Shown in pieces: positions 25 through 40,004 of a DNA stretch of 64,000 nt; position 1 is the first letter of the stretch, and each line of letters begins with the position of its first letter. Location: sequence record NC_047776.2; one strand, written 5' to 3'. A program made the translations under genes and the position numbers. The notes under the pieces are model-generated. The model did no database searches. It saw only the letters and a program-made list of their open reading frames with translations, and was not told the DNA's origin. This DNA comes from Escherichia phage ESCO5.

Positions 25-1140
25 GTGGCAAATACATATTTAACTAACGTAGACTTTTCAGGAAAAGCTACGGAAGAGTCACTAGGTGCTCATATTGCTT
101 ACACTTTTGATTTTCAAGGTGGAGCGGCATCTGGTTATAATACCCCCCTTTTATTTAAGTCAGACGGATCTCCAGACATAACTTTTGAAAAGTTAGAAGC
201 TCTCACTAAAATGGGAGAAGATGTTACAGAGTTACGTAAAAGCTATATTCAACAAGTGATGGATCGCATTTCTGAAAAAGTGCGTGAAAAATTTGAAGCT
301 GGTTGGGATTGGGTTTACGTTATTGATGCTGACTTCGATGCGAACGTTGCAATTTTCTGTTCAGATAACGGTATGTTCTCTGTTGGCTTTAAAGTTGACG
401 GACTGAATGTTGAAGTTGAAGAGGTTGCTAAACCTGTTGTTCGTGTTACTGATTATCAAGTTGTTGATGGTGATGTAATGATCTCCATTGATTTCTTTGA
501 GGACGTTTTAGACGATGCTTTGAGTAATCTCGTTAAGAGTTCCTTGAAACAAAGTCAAGTTAAAGATTATTTAGTGAAAGCTCACGCTAAAGCTAATACA
601 AACTCTGTGGATGCAGAGGCTAACCCCGCAGGTGATAAATCTGCAAACACAACTGGAATCAATAAAGGAGAAACCCCTTTGGAAAATATCAACAAAGAAG
701 AATTCCTGAAATCTGCTGAATTCCAAGAACTGATGAAAGCACAGATCGCTGAAGCTGTAGAAAAAGCAGCCGCAGATGCACGTGCAGCCGCAGAACTTGA
801 AGCACAGGAAAAAATCGCTAAGGCAGAACAGGAAGCAGAAGAACTTCGTAAAGCTGAACAAGCTCGTATCGAAGAAGAATATACAACTGTTGTTAAATCC
901 TATTCTTTCGTAGAAGAAGACAAAGTTGAAGCTCTCGTTAAATATCTGGTAGATAATAAAGATATCGCTGAAACTATCGTCAAAGCATTCGAAAAAGCAC
1001 GTGCAGAAGTGGACGCAGTTAAGAAAGAATTTGGAGCAGAACGTGGTGTTGATGTGATCAATACTCAACCTGTAGCTAAATCTTCTTCTGAACTGATTAG
1101 TCAGAAAGCTGCTGAACTTAAAAAAGCCCAGAAACAATAA
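25..1140 (+). CDS. putative head scaffolding protein
   Basis: GTG start with AAGGA RBS; 371 aa; C-terminal half is Ala/Glu/Lys-rich predicted coiled coil; directly upstream of decoration and major capsid genes. Confidence 0.5.
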   Translation: MANTYLTNVDFSGKATEESLGAHIAYTFDFQGGAASGYNTPLLFKSDGSPDITFEKLEALTKMGEDVTELRKSYIQQVMDRISEKVREKFEAGWDWVYVIDADFDANVAIFCSDNGMFSVGFKVDGLNVEVEEVAKPVVRVTDYQVVDGDVMISIDFFEDVLDDALSNLVKSSLKQSQVKDYLVKAHAKANTNSVDAEANPAGDKSANTTGINKGETPLENINKEEFLKSAEFQELMKAQIAEAVEKAAADARAAAELEAQEKIAKAEQEAEELRKAEQARIEEEYTTVVKSYSFVEEDKVEALVKYLVDNKDIAETIVKAFEKARAEVDAVKKEFGAERGVDVINTQPVAKSSSELISQKAAELKKAQKQ

Positions 1141-1159
1141 TCTTAGGAGATTAAATTAA

Positions 1160-1558
1160 ATGGCTAAAGGAATTACTTTATCTAACTCTCGCCAGGAATT
1201 CGGACACCTGGTTCTGGGTGGAGTGTTTAGCTCTGACCTTGGACACTGTGTACGTGAAGTTAACCTGGTTAAAACAGCAACCATGAAAATTGGTTCTATC
1301 CTGAAAGCTGACAACACTGAAGCTGCTAAAGCTGAAGCTGCCGATGCTGCTAAAGTTCTGATTTGGACTGATGCTCTGTTCGGTATTGATGATGTAGCAG
1401 TAGGTGACACTTTCACCGCAGTTGTTGGCGTACGTGATCTTACTCTGAACCGCTTTGCAGTATACTACAAAGATGGCTCCCTGGTAGATGACGCTGGCGT
1501 AGCAGCACTGGAAACACATGATCTGAAACTGACCGAAAAAGTCGTTTTCACTTCTTAA
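1160..1558 (+). CDS. head decoration protein (lambda gpD-like)
   Basis: 132 aa; strong RBS TAGGAGATTAA; motif LIWTDALFGIDDVAVG resembles lambda gpD LVAWDGTTDGAAVG; position between scaffold and capsid genes. Confidence 0.55.
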   Translation: MAKGITLSNSRQEFGHLVLGGVFSSDLGHCVREVNLVKTATMKIGSILKADNTEAAKAEAADAAKVLIWTDALFGIDDVAVGDTFTAVVGVRDLTLNRFAVYYKDGSLVDDAGVAALETHDLKLTEKVVFTS

Positions 1559-1579
1559 TTTTAATAGGAGATTAATATA

Positions 1580-2581
1580 ATGCCAGCAGTAATTTTAGAT
1601 CAGGTTGTAGATTTCAGCCCTATGATCGAACTTCAGGATTCCCCTGATACACTGATTGCCAGCCTGAATCTGTTCAGCGTTGACTATCATTCAACTACCG
1701 CTATTGAAATCGGTAAAGAAAAAGCTGAAGATGCGCTGATCTCCGCTCGTGAGCGTGGTGGTGAGCGTAACTTCCTGACCATGAAAAATCCAGAACTGAA
1801 AGCGTTCCGTATTCCGTTCTTCCCTCTGGATAAAAACATCAAAGCTCAAGATATTCAATCTTTCCGTAGCTTTGCGATGGCAGGAATCAATGACTCTCTG
1901 CGCACAGACGCTGAAGTTGTTAACCGCTATATGTCCCAGATTCTGCGTGACGTAGCAAAAACCAAAGAGAAAATCTTTGCAGAAGCAGTTATGGGTCGTG
2001 CCTATAACGGCGTAGGTGGTGCAGCTAACTCTGCATACAACTGGTATACCGAGTGGAATGCTACCCAGAAATCTGTTGCTGTAGACTTTGCTTCTACCAC
2101 TGTTTCTCCAGCAGCCACTATCGAGCAAGAAGCTCGTGCTTACATCATCGATACTAAACAAGATGGCTCTACCGCTACTCGTATCGTAGCTCTGTGTTCT
2201 CGTGAATTTTTCGCATCTCTGGTTAACTCTCCATTTGTTCGCCAGGCATATCAGTATTTCCAAGGAACTCCTAACCTTCTGCGTGACCGCCTTAGCGGTA
2301 ACATGGATGTTCAGGTGTTCGAATGGAACGGTGTAACTTACATTGAAGATATCCACGGTAACATCCCTGCTGGTGAAGCATATGTTCTGCCTATGGGTAT
2401 CGAAGGTATGTTCCAGGCGCACTACGCTCCTGCGGATACTCCAGAACTGGCTAACACCCAGGCTCGTGAACTGTATACCTTCATGATCAGCCAGCACCGC
2501 ACCATTCAGCTTCAGTCTGAATTCTCGCTGCTCGCAGTTAACACCCGTCCAGAACTGGTAGTTAAACTGACTACGGCTTAA
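1580..2581 (+). CDS. major capsid protein (lambda gpE-like family)
   Basis: 333 aa; RBS TAGGAGATTAA; C-terminal LANTQARELYTF parallels lambda gpE LGNTQARGLRTYG at same distance from C-terminus; followed by strong terminator. Confidence 0.8.
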   Translation: MPAVILDQVVDFSPMIELQDSPDTLIASLNLFSVDYHSTTAIEIGKEKAEDALISARERGGERNFLTMKNPELKAFRIPFFPLDKNIKAQDIQSFRSFAMAGINDSLRTDAEVVNRYMSQILRDVAKTKEKIFAEAVMGRAYNGVGGAANSAYNWYTEWNATQKSVAVDFASTTVSPAATIEQEARAYIIDTKQDGSTATRIVALCSREFFASLVNSPFVRQAYQYFQGTPNLLRDRLSGNMDVQVFEWNGVTYIEDIHGNIPAGEAYVLPMGIEGMFQAHYAPADTPELANTQARELYTFMISQHRTIQLQSEFSLLAVNTRPELVVKLTTA

Positions 2582-2602
2582 CAGAACTCTGTTAATATTA
2601 GA

Positions 2603-2635
2603 GGCTCGTCCGTGATGGGCGAGCCTTTTCTGTTT
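2603..2635 (+). terminator. rho-independent terminator after capsid gene
   Basis: GGCTCGTCC-gtgat-GGGCGAGCC 9-bp stem followed by TTTTCTGTTT. Confidence 0.7.
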
Positions 2636-2665
2636 ACAACAAGAGTTTACAATGAGGAGATTGAT

Positions 2666-3010
2666 ATGTCAAACCCAGAATTGAAACGTTACTTTAGTTA
2701 TCACGAAATGATTCGTGATTTCGAATCGCTTTCACCACTGATTGATGCTGATAAAACATTAGTATCTGCGCCACCAATGTCTTTCTATCTGAAAGATGGT
2801 CGTATTGCATTAGGTGGAAACTTCATTCACTTCCTCACACGTTTGAGAGAAGAAACAGGTATTCTTGTGCATCCTTTTGCAAGTGAAGAACACATGGGTT
2901 ACTATCTTGTAAGTTACGAAGATTATGCACCTGTAAAAATCAAAGAAGAAGTTTTAAAAGTAGAAGCGGTAGACACTCCAGCTAAAAAACGTTCCCTTCG
3001 TAAAAAATAA
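2666..3010 (+). CDS. hypothetical head/neck protein
   Basis: Track ORF starts at 2612 inside the terminator hairpin; internal ATG at 2666 has GAGGAG RBS 6 nt upstream, so start moved. Confidence 0.6.
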   Translation: MSNPELKRYFSYHEMIRDFESLSPLIDADKTLVSAPPMSFYLKDGRIALGGNFIHFLTRLREETGILVHPFASEEHMGYYLVSYEDYAPVKIKEEVLKVEAVDTPAKKRSLRKK

Positions 3011-3019
3011 GGTGGGCTT

Positions 3020-3568
3020 ATGCTGAATGCGGTAGAGTTGGCACCACTGATCCGAATTCTTGTTTATAACCCTTCTCAAGAAGTATTGCCAGATGCAATG
3101 CTGATTCAGATCATCCAGACTTGGATTGATATTATAGGGAATGAAGATAAGGATAAGTGTGCAGTATTGTGGAACAGCTTGATTTCTGTTTTAGAGTATT
3201 TATGGAACAACGATGTTCTTAATAACAATACTCAAACAGGAGGGGCTATGTCTCGCAGAGAAAAGATGGGTGAAGTCGAAGTTGAAGTTAAATTTAACAA
3301 CGGTCAAGTAACTTATAAGTCTCCGTGGGAAGATATTTATCATAACTATTTAAATGGTCTTATGGTTATTCCTGGGTGCACGGCAGGACGAGGAGCAACC
3401 AGTAAAGTTCTTATTGGTGGTGTTGATGCTCGTGAGATTGATCGAGTAAACAGCGATCCTAACTCTGTAAATGGTCTTGGTAATGTTGCAAGTGTTGATC
3501 GTAATACACGCAACGTTAATTATTTGCGAAATTATGGACCTGTTTCTTTTTATCGTAGGGACAAATAA
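3020..3568 (+). CDS. hypothetical structural (head-tail joining region) protein
   Basis: 182 aa ORF with AAGGTGGG RBS, in structural operon. Confidence 0.6.
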   Translation: MLNAVELAPLIRILVYNPSQEVLPDAMLIQIIQTWIDIIGNEDKDKCAVLWNSLISVLEYLWNNDVLNNNTQTGGAMSRREKMGEVEVEVKFNNGQVTYKSPWEDIYHNYLNGLMVIPGCTAGRGATSKVLIGGVDAREIDRVNSDPNSVNGLGNVASVDRNTRNVNYLRNYGPVSFYRRDK

Positions 3569-4056
3569 TGGAAAGTGAGATCTTACCAGGTGATGATACG
3601 GATTGGGAAACCATTATCAAAAAGATGATGGACCTTGAACAAGTTCAAATCGAAGCTGGTTTTTTAACAAACAAAAGGCATCCTGAATCAGATCTCACTA
3701 TTCCTGCAATAGCAGCTATTCAACAATATGGTAATGAAACAAATAACATACCTGCTCGCCCTTTTATAACAGATGGCGCTGTTATCTCACAGAACAATAT
3801 CGCTAAAAAGATGAAGCAGGTGTTTGCAAATTACTTAATGAATAATGTCGGGTTAGCTGTTTTTGAGCCTATAGCGAGAGCCTCTAGAGAAGGAATAGCT
3901 CAAGCGATTGCAATGCAACGTTATCGTCCTTTATCTCCTGTGACAATTAAGATACGACAAGATAAAGGCAACTATTCTAATCATATCTTAATAGATACGG
4001 CACACATGATAAATGCAATCGAAACAAAAATCACAAAAAGCAAGTCTAAAAAATAA
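3568..4056 (+). CDS. hypothetical structural protein
   Basis: 162 aa; start overlaps upstream stop (TAATG). Confidence 0.6.
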   Translation: MESEILPGDDTDWETIIKKMMDLEQVQIEAGFLTNKRHPESDLTIPAIAAIQQYGNETNNIPARPFITDGAVISQNNIAKKMKQVFANYLMNNVGLAVFEPIARASREGIAQAIAMQRYRPLSPVTIKIRQDKGNYSNHILIDTAHMINAIETKITKSKSKK

Positions 4057-4101
4057 CTTGCATAAACTTTGTTTTTGATGTATACTAAAAAGGAGATACA
4101 A

Positions 4102-4518
4102 GTGTTACTAGATCAATTTACTCTCCTTGATCTAACTGAATACCAAGGTCGTAGACGAGTCTACAAAGAGGCGGTTGGTTCAGTTATTGCTAACTTAGAA
4201 AGTAGTGTAGAATATGAACCATTTACTATTGAAGCGGCAAGCTTACAACCGATATCTGGTAAAACACTGAATGCACTACCTGAAGGTTACAGATCTAAGG
4301 CTCAATATAGTTTCTGGACTAAAACAGAAATGAAGGGGTTACAACAAGGAACAGAACAGTTATCAGATCAGATATTGATAGATGGTAAATGGTATTCTGT
4401 TTATTCCCTTAAAAATTGGACCAGAACATCTTTCTTAGTCCATCATCACTGTGTTGCAATATTAGACGATCAAAACAACTCCTGGTCTTATGGAACAGAA
4501 GGAGGAAACTTTGGCTAA
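4102..4518 (+). CDS. hypothetical structural protein
   Basis: GTG start preceded by AAGGAGA RBS; track start 4069 (TTG) lacks RBS. Confidence 0.55.
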   Translation: MLLDQFTLLDLTEYQGRRRVYKEAVGSVIANLESSVEYEPFTIEAASLQPISGKTLNALPEGYRSKAQYSFWTKTEMKGLQQGTEQLSDQILIDGKWYSVYSLKNWTRTSFLVHHHCVAILDDQNNSWSYGTEGGNFG

Positions 4519-36671: not shown

Positions 36672-39600
36672 TCAATGACAGGATGCCCAGGAATTACCCA
36701 CGTCATATCCGGCAGTAAGCTGAACGTTAAGATTGTAAAATTCTCCAGCCTTAGTAACAGCTAAAGCAGCAAGTTCACCTGCCCGACTATAAGCTGTAAA
36801 CCATCCACCTTTGGGAGATTCATGAATGTTAGCCCAAATTTGCCCTGTCTCTTTTTCCTTATTATGCTTCCATTCTTCAACTTTAGCAAGGCATTCTTTA
36901 TCAATTTTCTTTTGTTCTTCAGGATCGTCTACTTTCTTCCAACCTAATGATTCAGGTGAAAACCATTTGAATTCTACAAGGTTACGAGAAACTTCAAGCT
37001 GGGCTTCATCGTGGTATGCAATCATTTGTTGCACGAAGTCTTTATTCTTCCAGTCATCTTTAAAGAAGTCAACACTTAGTCCTTCTTCTTCGATCATATC
37101 GTCATAAATAACCATTGCACGTTTAGCACAGATAACCCCACCACTTTGGAACAGAGAGTTAAGAATCGCGTGAGCAGAACGAGTAGGAACCTTACGACCG
37201 TCAATACCCAAAACATACTGTTTACCAGTCTTAACCCAGAAATCGTTTAAACGTTCTTTAAGACGCGCCAGTGGGAATGCAGCTTCCCAGAAAGCATCGA
37301 ACACCAGTTGCCCTGTAAACTTATCGCTACCAATTGTTTTAGCAACCTTGTCGGCTTGTGCACCATAGGTAATACCATACTTAACAGATTTAGCAGGACT
37401 ACGTTCAAATTTACGTCCAATAGTTTCAGTGATACGTTTTGCCATCATGGTATGAACATCGTTAGGCTTCTCTAACAAGAGAGCGTTACAGTATTCATGA
37501 GGCTCCGGTTCGTAGCGCCAACAGTTTCCTGTGATGGTAATGCAGTCTTTCTGACGCATGACCCACGTACCAAGTTCTGTTTGTGGACACCAAACATCCT
37601 CTACACCCCACTCTTCAATAGTCAAACTTTGAACAGGAATGTGAGAGCGGTTAGCCAATGTTACCACTTTTACTTTCTGCTCTTTTGTATTGAAAGCTAC
37701 AGAGATATTGCCTCCATGCACCAGGTACGAGGCAGTTAAAGCTGCTTCAAAAAGTTCACCTGGGTTCTGCGCCCAACGCCAAACAGGTTTTTGTTTATGT
37801 TCATGCCAGTAACCATCTGCAATCAAGAAACCTTCCAAGAAAGCTACACGCTCGGCATGAGACATATTAACTACACGCTCTACCCACGGAACATCCCATT
37901 TACCTTGTTGAACAGAAGTTAAACTATTTACCTGATCTTGTTCCATGTTAAATGGAGCATTACAAATAATATTATCTCCTGTGCAAAGCTCGGCAGTTGT
38001 TCTGACTTTAGGCACATAAGTATTCCCTTTACTACGGGTATTAACATACCAACGGTGATCTGCTGTTGCACGGTAAGTGTGTGATTTCCCTTTAATCTCA
38101 AACGTCTTACTATTTTTATAGAAGACCTTACCTTTTACTTTAGTCCATTCTTTCAGACCTGTTTCAGCATTGTACCCTAAAATCTCATCCCCTTCCTTCA
38201 GGTCGTGATATCCTACCCAACCTTTACGAGTCAAAGCTTGAGCATCCATCGGCACACAGTAATGCGACTCAATCTTTGCTTCCAAAGAGTCGAAGTCATA
38301 ACCGATCTGGAAATATTTAGGAACTTCTACACCAAACAAGTTACGCATCTCCCATCCAAACAAAGATGTGACACGAGGGATATTGGCTACAGACCTATGC
38401 TTCATACGAGAGGTTGCAGCATCACATGTAGCGGCTGGGGTAGGAATACGCCCATCTGCCCTTACTGCGGCTAAGAAACCTTTATCGTATTCTTGATCTT
38501 CTTCATCTTCTTCCCAATCAGCACCGCCACCTAAAATAGAGTTCCTACGATGCTTATACGTTAAGTATTCTACAATCTGAGTAGCATAAGGAAATTTCTC
38601 ACCCAAAGCTTGCAGGTTAGGACAGATTTCTTTTTCCTGACCTTTGGTAAAACATGGGTTAGTCAATACTTTAAGACCGCGACCTTTACCTTTTGCTATA
38701 CGCTCTTGAATCTTCCTTTCCAAGGTTTCCGGTGCGCACTCCAGATGATCACAACGGTCCTGACAAAAATTAGAAGATAAAGTTTGCTCAACGTAAGCTC
38801 GAATACCTTTCTGAAGTTCTTCCTCACTCTTTTTAATCTTGGTGCCAGATTTAAGAGTCAAATCTTTATCTTTATATTCCGATGGTACCCAACCTAATCC
38901 TACAAGCCAGTTTTTAATATGGGTTGTATCGTTCAATGTCGCAGGGATGTTAGGATCACACAGAGGCTCATCTGCTGCAACTGGCAGTTTCCACTCTTTC
39001 CCCAACATAACTAACCACCAATCGCCATCCCTCTCTTCCAAATGACCATCATGTTTTTTAGCAAAATTGATCATATGGTTAGTTGGTTCGAGGTTCTTTT
39101 TAATTTGCAATTTAGGCGGAATAAAAGCTTTAAGATAACCTTTTGTTGCTGGTTTAGGTGGCAAAATAGGCTCAACGAGTAAACGAAGACGCTCCATTTC
39201 TGCATCCAAAAAAGCAAGGTTCTCTTCTGCTTGCTTCATATTAAAAGCAAACCCACGGTGTTCCTGGCGCGTGATAATGTCTGCTACACGTTGTTCAAGT
39301 TCAAATGGACCTTCCCATTTATCATAATCACCCCATTCTTCCATAAGGTAGTTATATACGCTCGTATTGGCTTTGTTGTCATAGATACAGTAATAAAGCA
39401 TATCCGCAGCAAAAGTCTTAAATCGATCTTCTTCTGGAATCTCTTTACGGAAATCTATTTTTACATCACCACCTGCTTTTCGAGAAAGTGCTGCCAAGCT
39501 ATGTCCTGATTTGCCCTCAATCTTTCGATCTGGGTTTAACACTTTACTCAAAATCAAGGAGTCAATAAGTTTTACCTTATTTTTGCCCCACGTATTATAT

Positions 39601-40004
39601 TTAACACTGTAATCTAATCCATAAAACAGTTTTGTAGCCAACCAGTCGTAGTTGATACCGTTGTGAGCCACAGCCATTTCAACCAGATATTCAGGCTTGT
39701 CTTTAAAATAACCTTCATGATTAATAAAGTCTGGGAAATCTTTTAGTTGAAAATGCGTGTAATCTTGCGCCACATACTCTTTAAGAACATATGTATATTT
39801 ACCATCTGACTCTTCATAAGGACGCCCATCAAAGATGTATTTAGGGCCATCGTGGAAAGCTACTATTTCTCCTGTTTCATGGTTCTCTAAGACAATACAG
39901 TGCATTTGAAATGTGTCTTTGAGACGATAAGGACTAGCTAAATAATCAATAGTGTCATTATTCAACAATCCGTTTGCTTCAATATCCCATGTAAACTTAC
40001 TCAC
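36672..40004 (-). CDS. DNA polymerase, family A (T7 gp5-like), intein-containing
   Basis: 1110 aa; N-terminal exo motif WDIEANGL; motif A YDFDSLEAKI; motif B SPAKSVKYGITYGAQ; C-terminus ends ...SWASCH (T7: ...NWAICH). Confidence 0.9.
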   Translation of the reverse strand: MSKFTWDIEANGLLNNDTIDYLASPYRLKDTFQMHCIVLENHETGEIVAFHDGPKYIFDGRPYEESDGKYTYVLKEYVAQDYTHFQLKDFPDFINHEGYFKDKPEYLVEMAVAHNGINYDWLATKLFYGLDYSVKYNTWGKNKVKLIDSLILSKVLNPDRKIEGKSGHSLAALSRKAGGDVKIDFRKEIPEEDRFKTFAADMLYYCIYDNKANTSVYNYLMEEWGDYDKWEGPFELEQRVADIITRQEHRGFAFNMKQAEENLAFLDAEMERLRLLVEPILPPKPATKGYLKAFIPPKLQIKKNLEPTNHMINFAKKHDGHLEERDGDWWLVMLGKEWKLPVAADEPLCDPNIPATLNDTTHIKNWLVGLGWVPSEYKDKDLTLKSGTKIKKSEEELQKGIRAYVEQTLSSNFCQDRCDHLECAPETLERKIQERIAKGKGRGLKVLTNPCFTKGQEKEICPNLQALGEKFPYATQIVEYLTYKHRRNSILGGGADWEEDEEDQEYDKGFLAAVRADGRIPTPAATCDAATSRMKHRSVANIPRVTSLFGWEMRNLFGVEVPKYFQIGYDFDSLEAKIESHYCVPMDAQALTRKGWVGYHDLKEGDEILGYNAETGLKEWTKVKGKVFYKNSKTFEIKGKSHTYRATADHRWYVNTRSKGNTYVPKVRTTAELCTGDNIICNAPFNMEQDQVNSLTSVQQGKWDVPWVERVVNMSHAERVAFLEGFLIADGYWHEHKQKPVWRWAQNPGELFEAALTASYLVHGGNISVAFNTKEQKVKVVTLANRSHIPVQSLTIEEWGVEDVWCPQTELGTWVMRQKDCITITGNCWRYEPEPHEYCNALLLEKPNDVHTMMAKRITETIGRKFERSPAKSVKYGITYGAQADKVAKTIGSDKFTGQLVFDAFWEAAFPLARLKERLNDFWVKTGKQYVLGIDGRKVPTRSAHAILNSLFQSGGVICAKRAMVIYDDMIEEEGLSVDFFKDDWKNKDFVQQMIAYHDEAQLEVSRNLVEFKWFSPESLGWKKVDDPEEQKKIDKECLAKVEEWKHNKEKETGQIWANIHESPKGGWFTAYSRAGELAALAVTKAGEFYNLNVQLTAGYDVGNSWASCH
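37524..38258 (-). mobile_element. candidate intein with LAGLIDADG-type motif inserted in polymerase motif A
   Basis: Residues 583-827: starts with Cys (CVPMDAQAL), block B-like ATADHRWYV, LAGLIDADG-like AFLEGFLIADGY, ends ...ITGN followed by Cys; flanking extein aligns to T7 DASGLELRCLAHF / RFDNGEYAHEIL. Confidence 0.55.

Follow-up and report, generated by a model that had tools for sequence, protein, structure and literature searches.

The closest described relatives of the element considered here, an insert of 245 amino acids (aa) in the family A DNA polymerase of Escherichia phage ESCO5 (NC_047776.2, of which a stretch of 64,000 nucleotides, hereafter the window, was analysed), are found in phage PaulScherrer (Bas60, MZ501100) of the BASEL collection (PMC8594841) and in phage SD2 (PQ821640). 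Both carry the same 245-aa element at the same site, with 91.8% nucleotide and 97.6% amino acid identity, but differ in belonging to the genus Justusliebigvirus and in having a polymerase that is 20–40% diverged at the nucleotide level. The PaulScherrer record of the BASEL authors, whose annotation method is given in PMC8594841, describes an "intein-containing DNA polymerase precursor" with an "intein" mature peptide, and SD2 shares the product name; the mature peptide of Bas60 (MZ501100, 2504–3238) lies one codon off, reading VPMD...TGNC instead of Cys1...Asn245, because a TGT is repeated at both junctions. None of the Phapecoctavirus records listed annotates an intein, a literature search found no paper describing this intein, and a 2024 paper states that inteins are not reported in coliphages (PMC11162368). 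The insert of ESCO5 is very probably a mobile intein of this phAPEC8-like coliphage polymerase, that is, an uncharacterised new intein of a known kind, a near-identical copy of which is already annotated in PaulScherrer and SD2.

A more distant relative is the RDF intein of the mycobacteriophage Bethlehem ("gp51" in PMC5050341; gp52 in AY500153), which shares Cys1, a Cys at position 4 of block F (F:4), and a Thr-Gly-Asn end followed by the nucleophile. Its sequence (CSWTNARAVT...TANHRV...VWCLRV...HLTGN/S, where the slash marks the splice junction here and below) scores 32.5 bits against the profile of the family described in this work, and it differs in its length of 317 aa, in a Val for Trp at block B position 12, in its host protein, and in the distance of the similarity. 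Kelley et al. (2016) reported that this intein splices to completion in E. coli, that a Gly-to-His change at the penultimate position slows the reaction (>5 h for 50% completion), that the endonuclease is toxic in E. coli, and that the penultimate His is often missing in class 1 inteins of mycobacteriophages (PMC5050341).

The same polymerase gene holds another intein of the same family, at motif B, in phages nepoznato (MN850571), ukendt, nieznany, phiWec187, and AV126; it is 33% identical to the window intein and shares with it Cys1, TxxHxW, the F:4 Cys, and the Thr-Gly-Asn/Cys end, but is 324 aa long, has two LAGLIDADG motifs, and is located after KSVKYG (the equivalent of T7 G527), ~50 codons downstream. 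In MN850571 this intein occupies positions 2801–3772 (KSVKYG/C...LTGN/CTYGAQ; the window equivalent is ~37371/37372), and its +1 Cys replaces the Ile of intein-free alleles. The motif A and motif B inteins occur together in none of the records listed.

Class 3 inteins, including those of Bethlehem "DnaB"/TerL, the Msm and Mch DnaB1, and AceL NrdHF (PMC2807308, PMC7664689, PMC7891396), have the Trp-Cys-Thr triplet of the window intein with identical spacing, have likewise been proposed to originate from phages, and rank among the nearest structural matches of its HINT domain; they differ in the absence of an N-terminal nucleophile, in a penultimate His that most of them have in place of the Gly found here, and in the weak profile likeness of the prototype (11 bits). 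As regards the endonuclease, PI-SceI, PI-PfuI, PI-PkoII, and TliVMA are monomeric with two LAGLIDADG half-domains per chain, whereas the window intein has only one, like the homodimeric I-CreI, I-MsoI, and I-CeuI.

The polymerase gene and the limits of the insert

The source phage is a phAPEC8-like E. coli myovirus of the genus Phapecoctavirus, subfamily Stephanstirmvirinae. Its polymerase gene shares 98.7% identity with the vB_EcoM_REC gene and ~97–98% with those of many other phages. The precursor matches Pfam DNA_pol_A (E 2.1e-11) and its open reading frame has no internal stop. Its parts are the following:

36672–40004, minus strand: intein-containing family A DNA polymerase precursor, 1110 aa, 127.6 kDa, GTG start
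38259–40004, minus strand: N-extein, precursor residues 1–582, ending in ...GYD570FDSLEAKIESHY (motif A), from sequence comparison
37524–38258, minus strand: intein, 245 aa, 27.9 kDa, CVPMD...ITITGN, precursor residues 583–827, exactly missing from phAPEC8 and relatives and with an intein-like predicted fold
36672–37523, minus strand: C-extein, precursor residues 828–1110 and stop, with the +1 nucleophile Cys828 (37521–37523) and motifs B and C, from sequence comparison

The initial annotation, made from the letters of the window without database searches, had placed an in-frame insert of ~245 aa at 37524–38258 of a 1110-aa polymerase, and these coordinates proved to be exact; the Cys start, the TADH of block B, the LAGLIDADG-like motif, and the Asn-then-Cys end that it listed are all present. 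The insert opens with CVPMDAQ and closes with ...ITITGN, followed by CWRYEPEPHEY. The proposed comparison with intein-free homologues gave a clean in-frame excision of 735 nucleotides (nt) in phAPEC8 and others: the gene measures 2598 nt in phAPEC8 versus 3333 nt here, a difference of exactly 735 nt, and the empty-site junction in phAPEC8 reads ...AKIESHY/CWRYEPEPHEY. Precisely this segment is absent from phAPEC8 and at least four other phages with a polymerase gene ~97–98% identical, and the relatives that lack it include ESCO13, Ro121lw, and SKA64, with the junction ESHY/CWRYEP. Once the insert is removed, the window protein has 865 aa and a single internal residue differs from the phAPEC8 polymerase. 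The junction is ambiguous by 3 nt, as the TGT repeated at both ends of the insert allows the boundary to be shifted by one codon, and Cys1...Asn245/Cys+1 is the sole chemically sensible reading.

The alignment of the flanks to T7 gp5, another of the checks proposed at the outset, was obtained with the spliced polymerase (E 3.5e-17), in which GYDFDSLEAKIESHY/CWRYEPEPHEY faces GID475ASGLELRCLAHF487/M488ARFDN--GEYAHE. In particular, GYD570FDSLEAKIESHY582/C828WRY corresponds to GID475ASGLELRCLAHF487/M488ARF, and D570 of the window protein to D475 of T7. The insertion point is located 12 residues past the catalytic Asp of motif A, at the C-terminal edge of the motif and outside the catalytic core; this corrects the initial annotation, in which the insert splits motif A. 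A 245-aa domain that was not removed from this position would be expected to disable the polymerase. Splicing of the 127.6-kDa precursor is inferred from viability: no fewer than 24 phapecoctavirus genomes, from viable phages that were isolated independently, have the intein within this essential polymerase. The base composition of the intein is not distinct from that of the rest of the polymerase gene, and a search of the window for further intein copies found none.

Predicted fold and family of the insert

The AlphaFold model of the intein, built on a 47-sequence alignment, has a predicted local distance difference test score (pLDDT) of 94.7 and a predicted template modelling score (pTM) of 0.91; it resolved the endonuclease domain, which was of low confidence in an earlier model based on 8 sequences, and a Foldseek search with that earlier, lower-confidence model gave the same fold picture. 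The intein is predicted to be organised as follows:

37944–38258, minus strand: N-terminal lobe of the HINT domain, intein residues 1–105 (pLDDT 92–98), with Cys1 at 38256–38258 and block B TADHRW at 38049–38066 (Thr65, His68, Trp70)
37887–37943, minus strand: linker from the HINT lobe to the endonuclease domain, residues 106–124, the lowest-confidence block of the model (pLDDT ~73)
37653–37886, minus strand: single LAGLIDADG domain, residues 125–202 of the predicted structure, with the motif AFLEGFLIADGY at 37809–37844, Asp148 at 37815–37817, and Gln164 at 37767–37769
37524–37652, minus strand: C-terminal lobe of the HINT domain, residues 203–245, with blocks F and G (DVWCPQTELGTWVMRQKDCITITGN) at 37524–37598, Cys224 (block F position 4) at 37587–37589, and then Thr243-Gly244-Asn245, from family conservation

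The HINT fold is thus predicted to be formed by residues 1–105 together with 203–245, and TADH(RW) corresponds to residues 65–70, the LAGLIDADG motif to residues 139–150. The unit between the two lobes is modelled as alpha-alpha-beta-beta-alpha-beta-beta, with a long helix ending in LIAD148G, so that a LAGLIDADG helix with a terminal acidic residue is found inside an alpha-beta-beta-alpha-beta-beta core. There is no room for a second half-domain; ~34 residues without confident structure lie upstream and the HINT C-terminal lobe follows directly downstream. An N-terminal Cys, the Thr-x-x-His of block B, and a C-terminal Asn followed by Cys+1, which are expected of an intein, are all found, while the penultimate His, common but not obligatory, is replaced by Gly244.

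Curated profiles are almost blind to the insert. The Pfam Intein_splicing match (E 0.009, 16.3 bits) stays below the cut-off of 35.8 bits, LAGLIDADG_3 gives E 0.13, the NCBIfam scan gave no match, and these results weigh against the identification as an intein; when the insert and its family members were scanned with Pfam and NCBIfam, intein and LAGLIDADG matches were below threshold only, and a single-sequence search of solved structures gave weak matches only. The intein profile search suggested by the initial annotation stayed below threshold with the public libraries and gave matches at E ~2e-5 with a purpose-built family profile: constructed from the insert and its metagenomic relatives, this profile matches solved inteins, namely AceL NrdHF (2.3e-5), NrdJ-1 (2.9e-5), and DnaX (4.8e-5). 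Moreover, tblastn matches coincide with the positions of inteins in phage genes for terminase, portal, tape-measure, and DNA polymerase proteins. The blindness of Pfam and NCBIfam to the family probably explains why annotation is missing in most phage records.

The family is large. A hidden Markov model search of 1.84 billion representatives gave 6927 matches at E<1e-3 and 478 at E<1e-30, and end-to-end profile matches identified 125 intein copies among the best 157 proteins, with lengths of 220–281 aa (median 250). Residue conservation was counted over 124 non-identical representatives: Cys1, Thr65, His68, Cys224, Thr243, and Asn245 are conserved in all of them (124/124), Trp70 and Gly244 in 123/124, Gly149 and Gln164 in 121/124, Asp/Glu148 in 120/124, and Lys/Arg204 in 100/124. 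The residue at +1 is always Ser (68), Thr (31), or Cys (26). Family A polymerases are entered at no fewer than three sites, one ahead of the SPNxxN motif, one past motif A (IEAHY/TYKYDN, VQGHY/TWRYDN), and one within motif B. The same splicing-block signature, in some cases with two LAGLIDADG motifs, is present in Gordonia phage terminase and tape-measure genes and in the polymerases of Pseudomonas phages KIL, and the family includes mini versions (P0005, P0008, and P0009).

The commonest host (~40 of the 125 representatives) is a small protein, of phages or viruses, with the conserved motif ...KFDVYP/SAYANGWA... (e.g., P0003, P0004, P0006, and P0010–P0017). P0018 and P0021 contain two family inteins apiece, and the metagenomic polymerases P0048 and P0063 have family inteins at the motif A site with Thr+1 (GHY/TWRYDN and GHY/TYKYDN).

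The penultimate Gly in place of His and the single LAGLIDADG motif, both recorded as departures in the initial annotation, are indeed present; as they are constant across this large and evidently thriving family, they are family traits and not signs of decay, and Bethlehem RDF, a relative with the Gly-Asn end, splices.

It could be argued that the insert is not an intein and is a lineage-specific domain retained in the mature polymerase, or an element acting at the DNA or RNA level such as an intron. The sub-threshold scores of all curated profiles and the plain "DNA polymerase" label of the 1110-aa protein in most GenBank records agree with such a view, which is nevertheless scarcely credible given the continuous reading frame without a stop, the exact Cys...Asn/Cys boundaries, the high-confidence predicted HINT fold, the insertion only 12 residues from the catalytic Asp, and the presence of members of this family in unrelated proteins, where they sit at conserved motifs and the next residue is without exception Ser, Thr, or Cys. 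The identification as an intein, put forward in the initial annotation, is supported independently by the clean presence/absence pattern, the matches of the family profile to solved inteins, the tblastn matches at intein positions, and the annotation of PaulScherrer.

Proposed splicing chemistry

After translation of the 127.6-kDa precursor, the HINT lobes (1–105 and 203–245) would fold together and the resulting domain would excise the 27.9-kDa intein and ligate Tyr582 to Cys828, generating a polymerase of 99.6 kDa. The chemistry is most likely that of standard class 1 inteins, in which an N-S acyl shift at Cys1, aided by Thr65 and His68, would be followed by trans-thioesterification onto Cys+1, by the cyclisation of Asn245 in the absence of a penultimate His, and finally by an S-N shift that yields the peptide bond. 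Cys224, at block F position 4, takes the place of the Asp that is usual in class 1 inteins and could act as a catalytic assistant or as a relay nucleophile.

The class assignment is complicated by the presence of the complete class 3 triplet, invariant in the family, formed by Trp70 (B:12), Cys224 (F:4), and Thr243 (G:5). Trp70 is two residues after His68, Cys224 is 21 residues before Asn245, and Thr243 is two residues before Asn245; the same spacing is known from the class 3 MchDnaB1 intein (H65, W67, C124, T143, N145; PMC7664689), and the 21 residues from Cys to Asn are common to the class 3 Mch, Msm, and Mle DnaB inteins (PMC7664689, PMC5222942). Class 3 was, however, defined both by the triplet and by the lack of an N-terminal nucleophile (PMC2807308), and in this family an N-terminal Cys, Ser, or Thr is not lacking, Cys1 being invariant (124/124). 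Tori et al. found Ser1 or Cys1 in 3 of 37 triplet-bearing inteins, whose mechanism was then unresolved (PMC2807308), and class 1 also includes inteins with an F:4 Cys, a recognised and polyphyletic group (PMC3196547). Structure searches place the class 3 AceL NrdHF first among the mini-inteins, but by a narrow margin. Against the family profile, the Bethlehem RDF intein, treated by its authors as class 1, reaches 32.5 bits and the class 3 prototype, Bethlehem TerL, 11 bits.

The triplet beside Cys1 counts against a simple class 1 assignment, as it may leave room for another route. In a class 3-like or hybrid pathway, Cys224 would attack the N-terminal junction, or relay the N-extein from Cys1 to Cys+1, through a block F branched thioester as in Bethlehem "DnaB" (TerL) and the mycobacterial DnaB inteins. 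The conserved triplet with MchDnaB1 spacing and the recorded Ser1/Cys1 exceptions speak for this route, which we consider improbable: an invariant Cys1 is hard to explain if it is dispensable, a missing N-terminal nucleophile belongs to the very definition of class 3, Cys at F:4 is known in class 1, and the profile is closer to Bethlehem RDF than to the class 3 prototype. Since both Cys1 and Cys224 are invariant, splicing more likely begins as in class 1, with Cys224 assisting, serving in redox chemistry, or acting as a relay, and the intein is not filed here as class 3.

A combined interpretation is also conceivable in which the intein belongs to a large unnamed phage lineage that uses a three-cysteine relay (Cys1 to Cys224 to Cys+1), as a living intermediate between class 1 and class 3, and homes by means of a homodimeric single-domain LAGLIDADG endonuclease; taken as a whole, this would be a long shot. 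A phage-borne ancestor of class 3 of this intermediate kind was reportedly postulated by Tori and Perler.

Endonuclease domain and mobility of the element

The initial annotation regarded the endonuclease as a remnant, and this description has not stood: the intein has a single LAGLIDADG domain that is complete, strongly constrained by purifying selection, and conserved among the many members of its family. If the domain is active, the released intein would most likely homodimerise or act as a nickase, and its target would be the empty site (...ATTGAATCACACTAC/TGTTGGCGGTACGAG...) of a co-infecting intein-free phage, into which recombinational repair would copy the intein. One domain provides one active site, so a double-strand cut would need a homodimer, as in I-CreI, and otherwise the enzyme would nick.

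Several observations weigh against an active homing enzyme. The single LAGLIDADG motif departs from the two half-domains of characterised intein endonucleases; the palindromic symmetry of the empty site, 6 of 11 pairs, is the modal value for shuffled sequence, and the idea of a dimer is therefore without sequence support; and the mini relatives indicate that the endonuclease domain is dispensable for splicing. To our knowledge, characterised intein endonucleases have two LAGLIDADG motifs, and no intein is reported to have a homodimeric endonuclease of a single LAGLIDADG domain; a literature search for single-motif intein endonucleases found nothing relevant.

These points are also the substance of a rival explanation, in which splicing is intact but the LAGLIDADG domain has lost the ability to cut DNA: it would be the fixed half of a former two-domain enzyme kept for folding or DNA binding, and gain and loss of the element would depend solely on general recombination in co-infected cells or on an endonuclease acting in trans. 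The 33%-identical sister of nepoznato has two motifs, to the second of which the window intein aligns, and recombination alone can give mosaic flanks. Conversely, the ~245-aa one-domain architecture is kept across 125 representatives (at most 50% identical) in unrelated hosts, Asp/Glu148, Gly149, and Gln164 are conserved at 97–98%, the ratio of nonsynonymous to synonymous substitution rates (dN/dS) in the domain is 0.04, and an intein much younger than its host gene (synonymous divergence, dS, 0.48 versus >1.7) is more simply explained by directed invasion. Loss of cutting is accordingly judged a less probable, though by no means negligible, explanation, and an active endonuclease is somewhat favoured over a fossil on account of the conservation of the acidic, Gly, Gln, and Lys/Arg residues, the purifying selection, and the spread of the element.

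Intein DNA is found in 33 of 121 phage records holding the polymerase. Compared with the window copy, the phapecoctavirus inteins are mostly 98.4–100% identical at the nucleotide level (96.5–96.9% in three records) and 98.4–100% identical in amino acids in the records listed; those of phi92-like Justusliebigvirus are 91.8% (VEcB 95.9%) and 97.6% identical, respectively, and the intein of Klebsiella phage KP13-16 is 77.5% and 90.6% identical. The 95.9% of Justusliebigvirus VEcB (OZ035773), against the 91.8% usual for the genus, is a hint that the intein crossed between genera a second time and more recently.

Between the window and PaulScherrer, the nucleotide divergence is 20–40% in the exteins and 1–14% in the intein, and the dS between Phapecoctavirus and Justusliebigvirus, calculated by the Nei-Gojobori method, is 0.48 for the intein and from 1.7 to saturated for the exteins. 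As the intein dS is far below that of the exteins, the intein reached one of the two genera long after their polymerases diverged. The dN/dS by the same method is 0.022 for the intein and 0.04 for the LAGLIDADG domain alone, values which indicate purifying selection on the whole length of the intein, endonuclease domain included.

Within Phapecoctavirus, the 220–250 nt on each side of the site form two haplotypes, 12–13% apart compared to ~2% in the distal gene, and among ten alleles compared, intein-plus and intein-minus alleles are found on both. In fact, the flanks of ESCO13 (without intein) and Ro121c4 (with intein) differ by 0.5–1.6%, and those of anhysbys (with) and phAPEC8 (without) by 0.5–3.7%. 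This distribution means that the element has been gained or lost more than once, with crossovers near it; homing in mixed infections yields such a pattern, but ordinary phage recombination could too, which weakens it as evidence for homing. A simple co-conversion tract tied to the intein, first considered from the comparison of the window with phAPEC8 (11–13% near the junction versus 0–4%), was dropped since both haplotypes occur with and without the intein.

The apparent insert of equal length and different sequence in vB_EcoM_01 (PP129558) was rejected: it is an artefact of assembly, with 514 Ns and a second copy of the empty-site segment. In the stretch 1001–4331 of PP129558 these lie exactly at the intein position, as if an intein-free phage had been scaffolded on a reference that carries the intein.

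The divergence of the extein around the motif B intein, 31–36%, suggests that a long tract was co-converted. The empty motif A site of nepoznato (equivalent to window 37491–37523) has Thr in place of the +1 Cys and a diverged flank (ESHY-TWRYDNPDHAY), and could represent a different target-site variant or a resistance allele. A phapecoctavirus-type polymerase with the motif B intein, whose score equals that of E. coli phages, is also present in MG065639, MG065645, MG065656, and MG065689, records of ~146 kb named "Campylobacter phage" whose host labels look doubtful.

The finding of the intein does not overturn current understanding. It uncovers an annotation gap, as at least 24 phapecoctavirus records carry the intein, none of those listed annotates it, and Pfam and NCBIfam miss the whole family. 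It also offers a tractable model: the intein-plus anhysbys, intein-free relatives, and nepoznato with its motif B intein are all available and, as anhysbys and nepoznato grow on E. coli K-12, an easy host would serve for work on homing, co-conversion, and the competition of two inteins within a single essential gene. Finally, the combination in one family of an invariant Cys1, the class 3 triplet, and a Gly-Asn end, together with a one-domain LAGLIDADG endonuclease, bears on the evolution of the splicing classes and of intein endonucleases.

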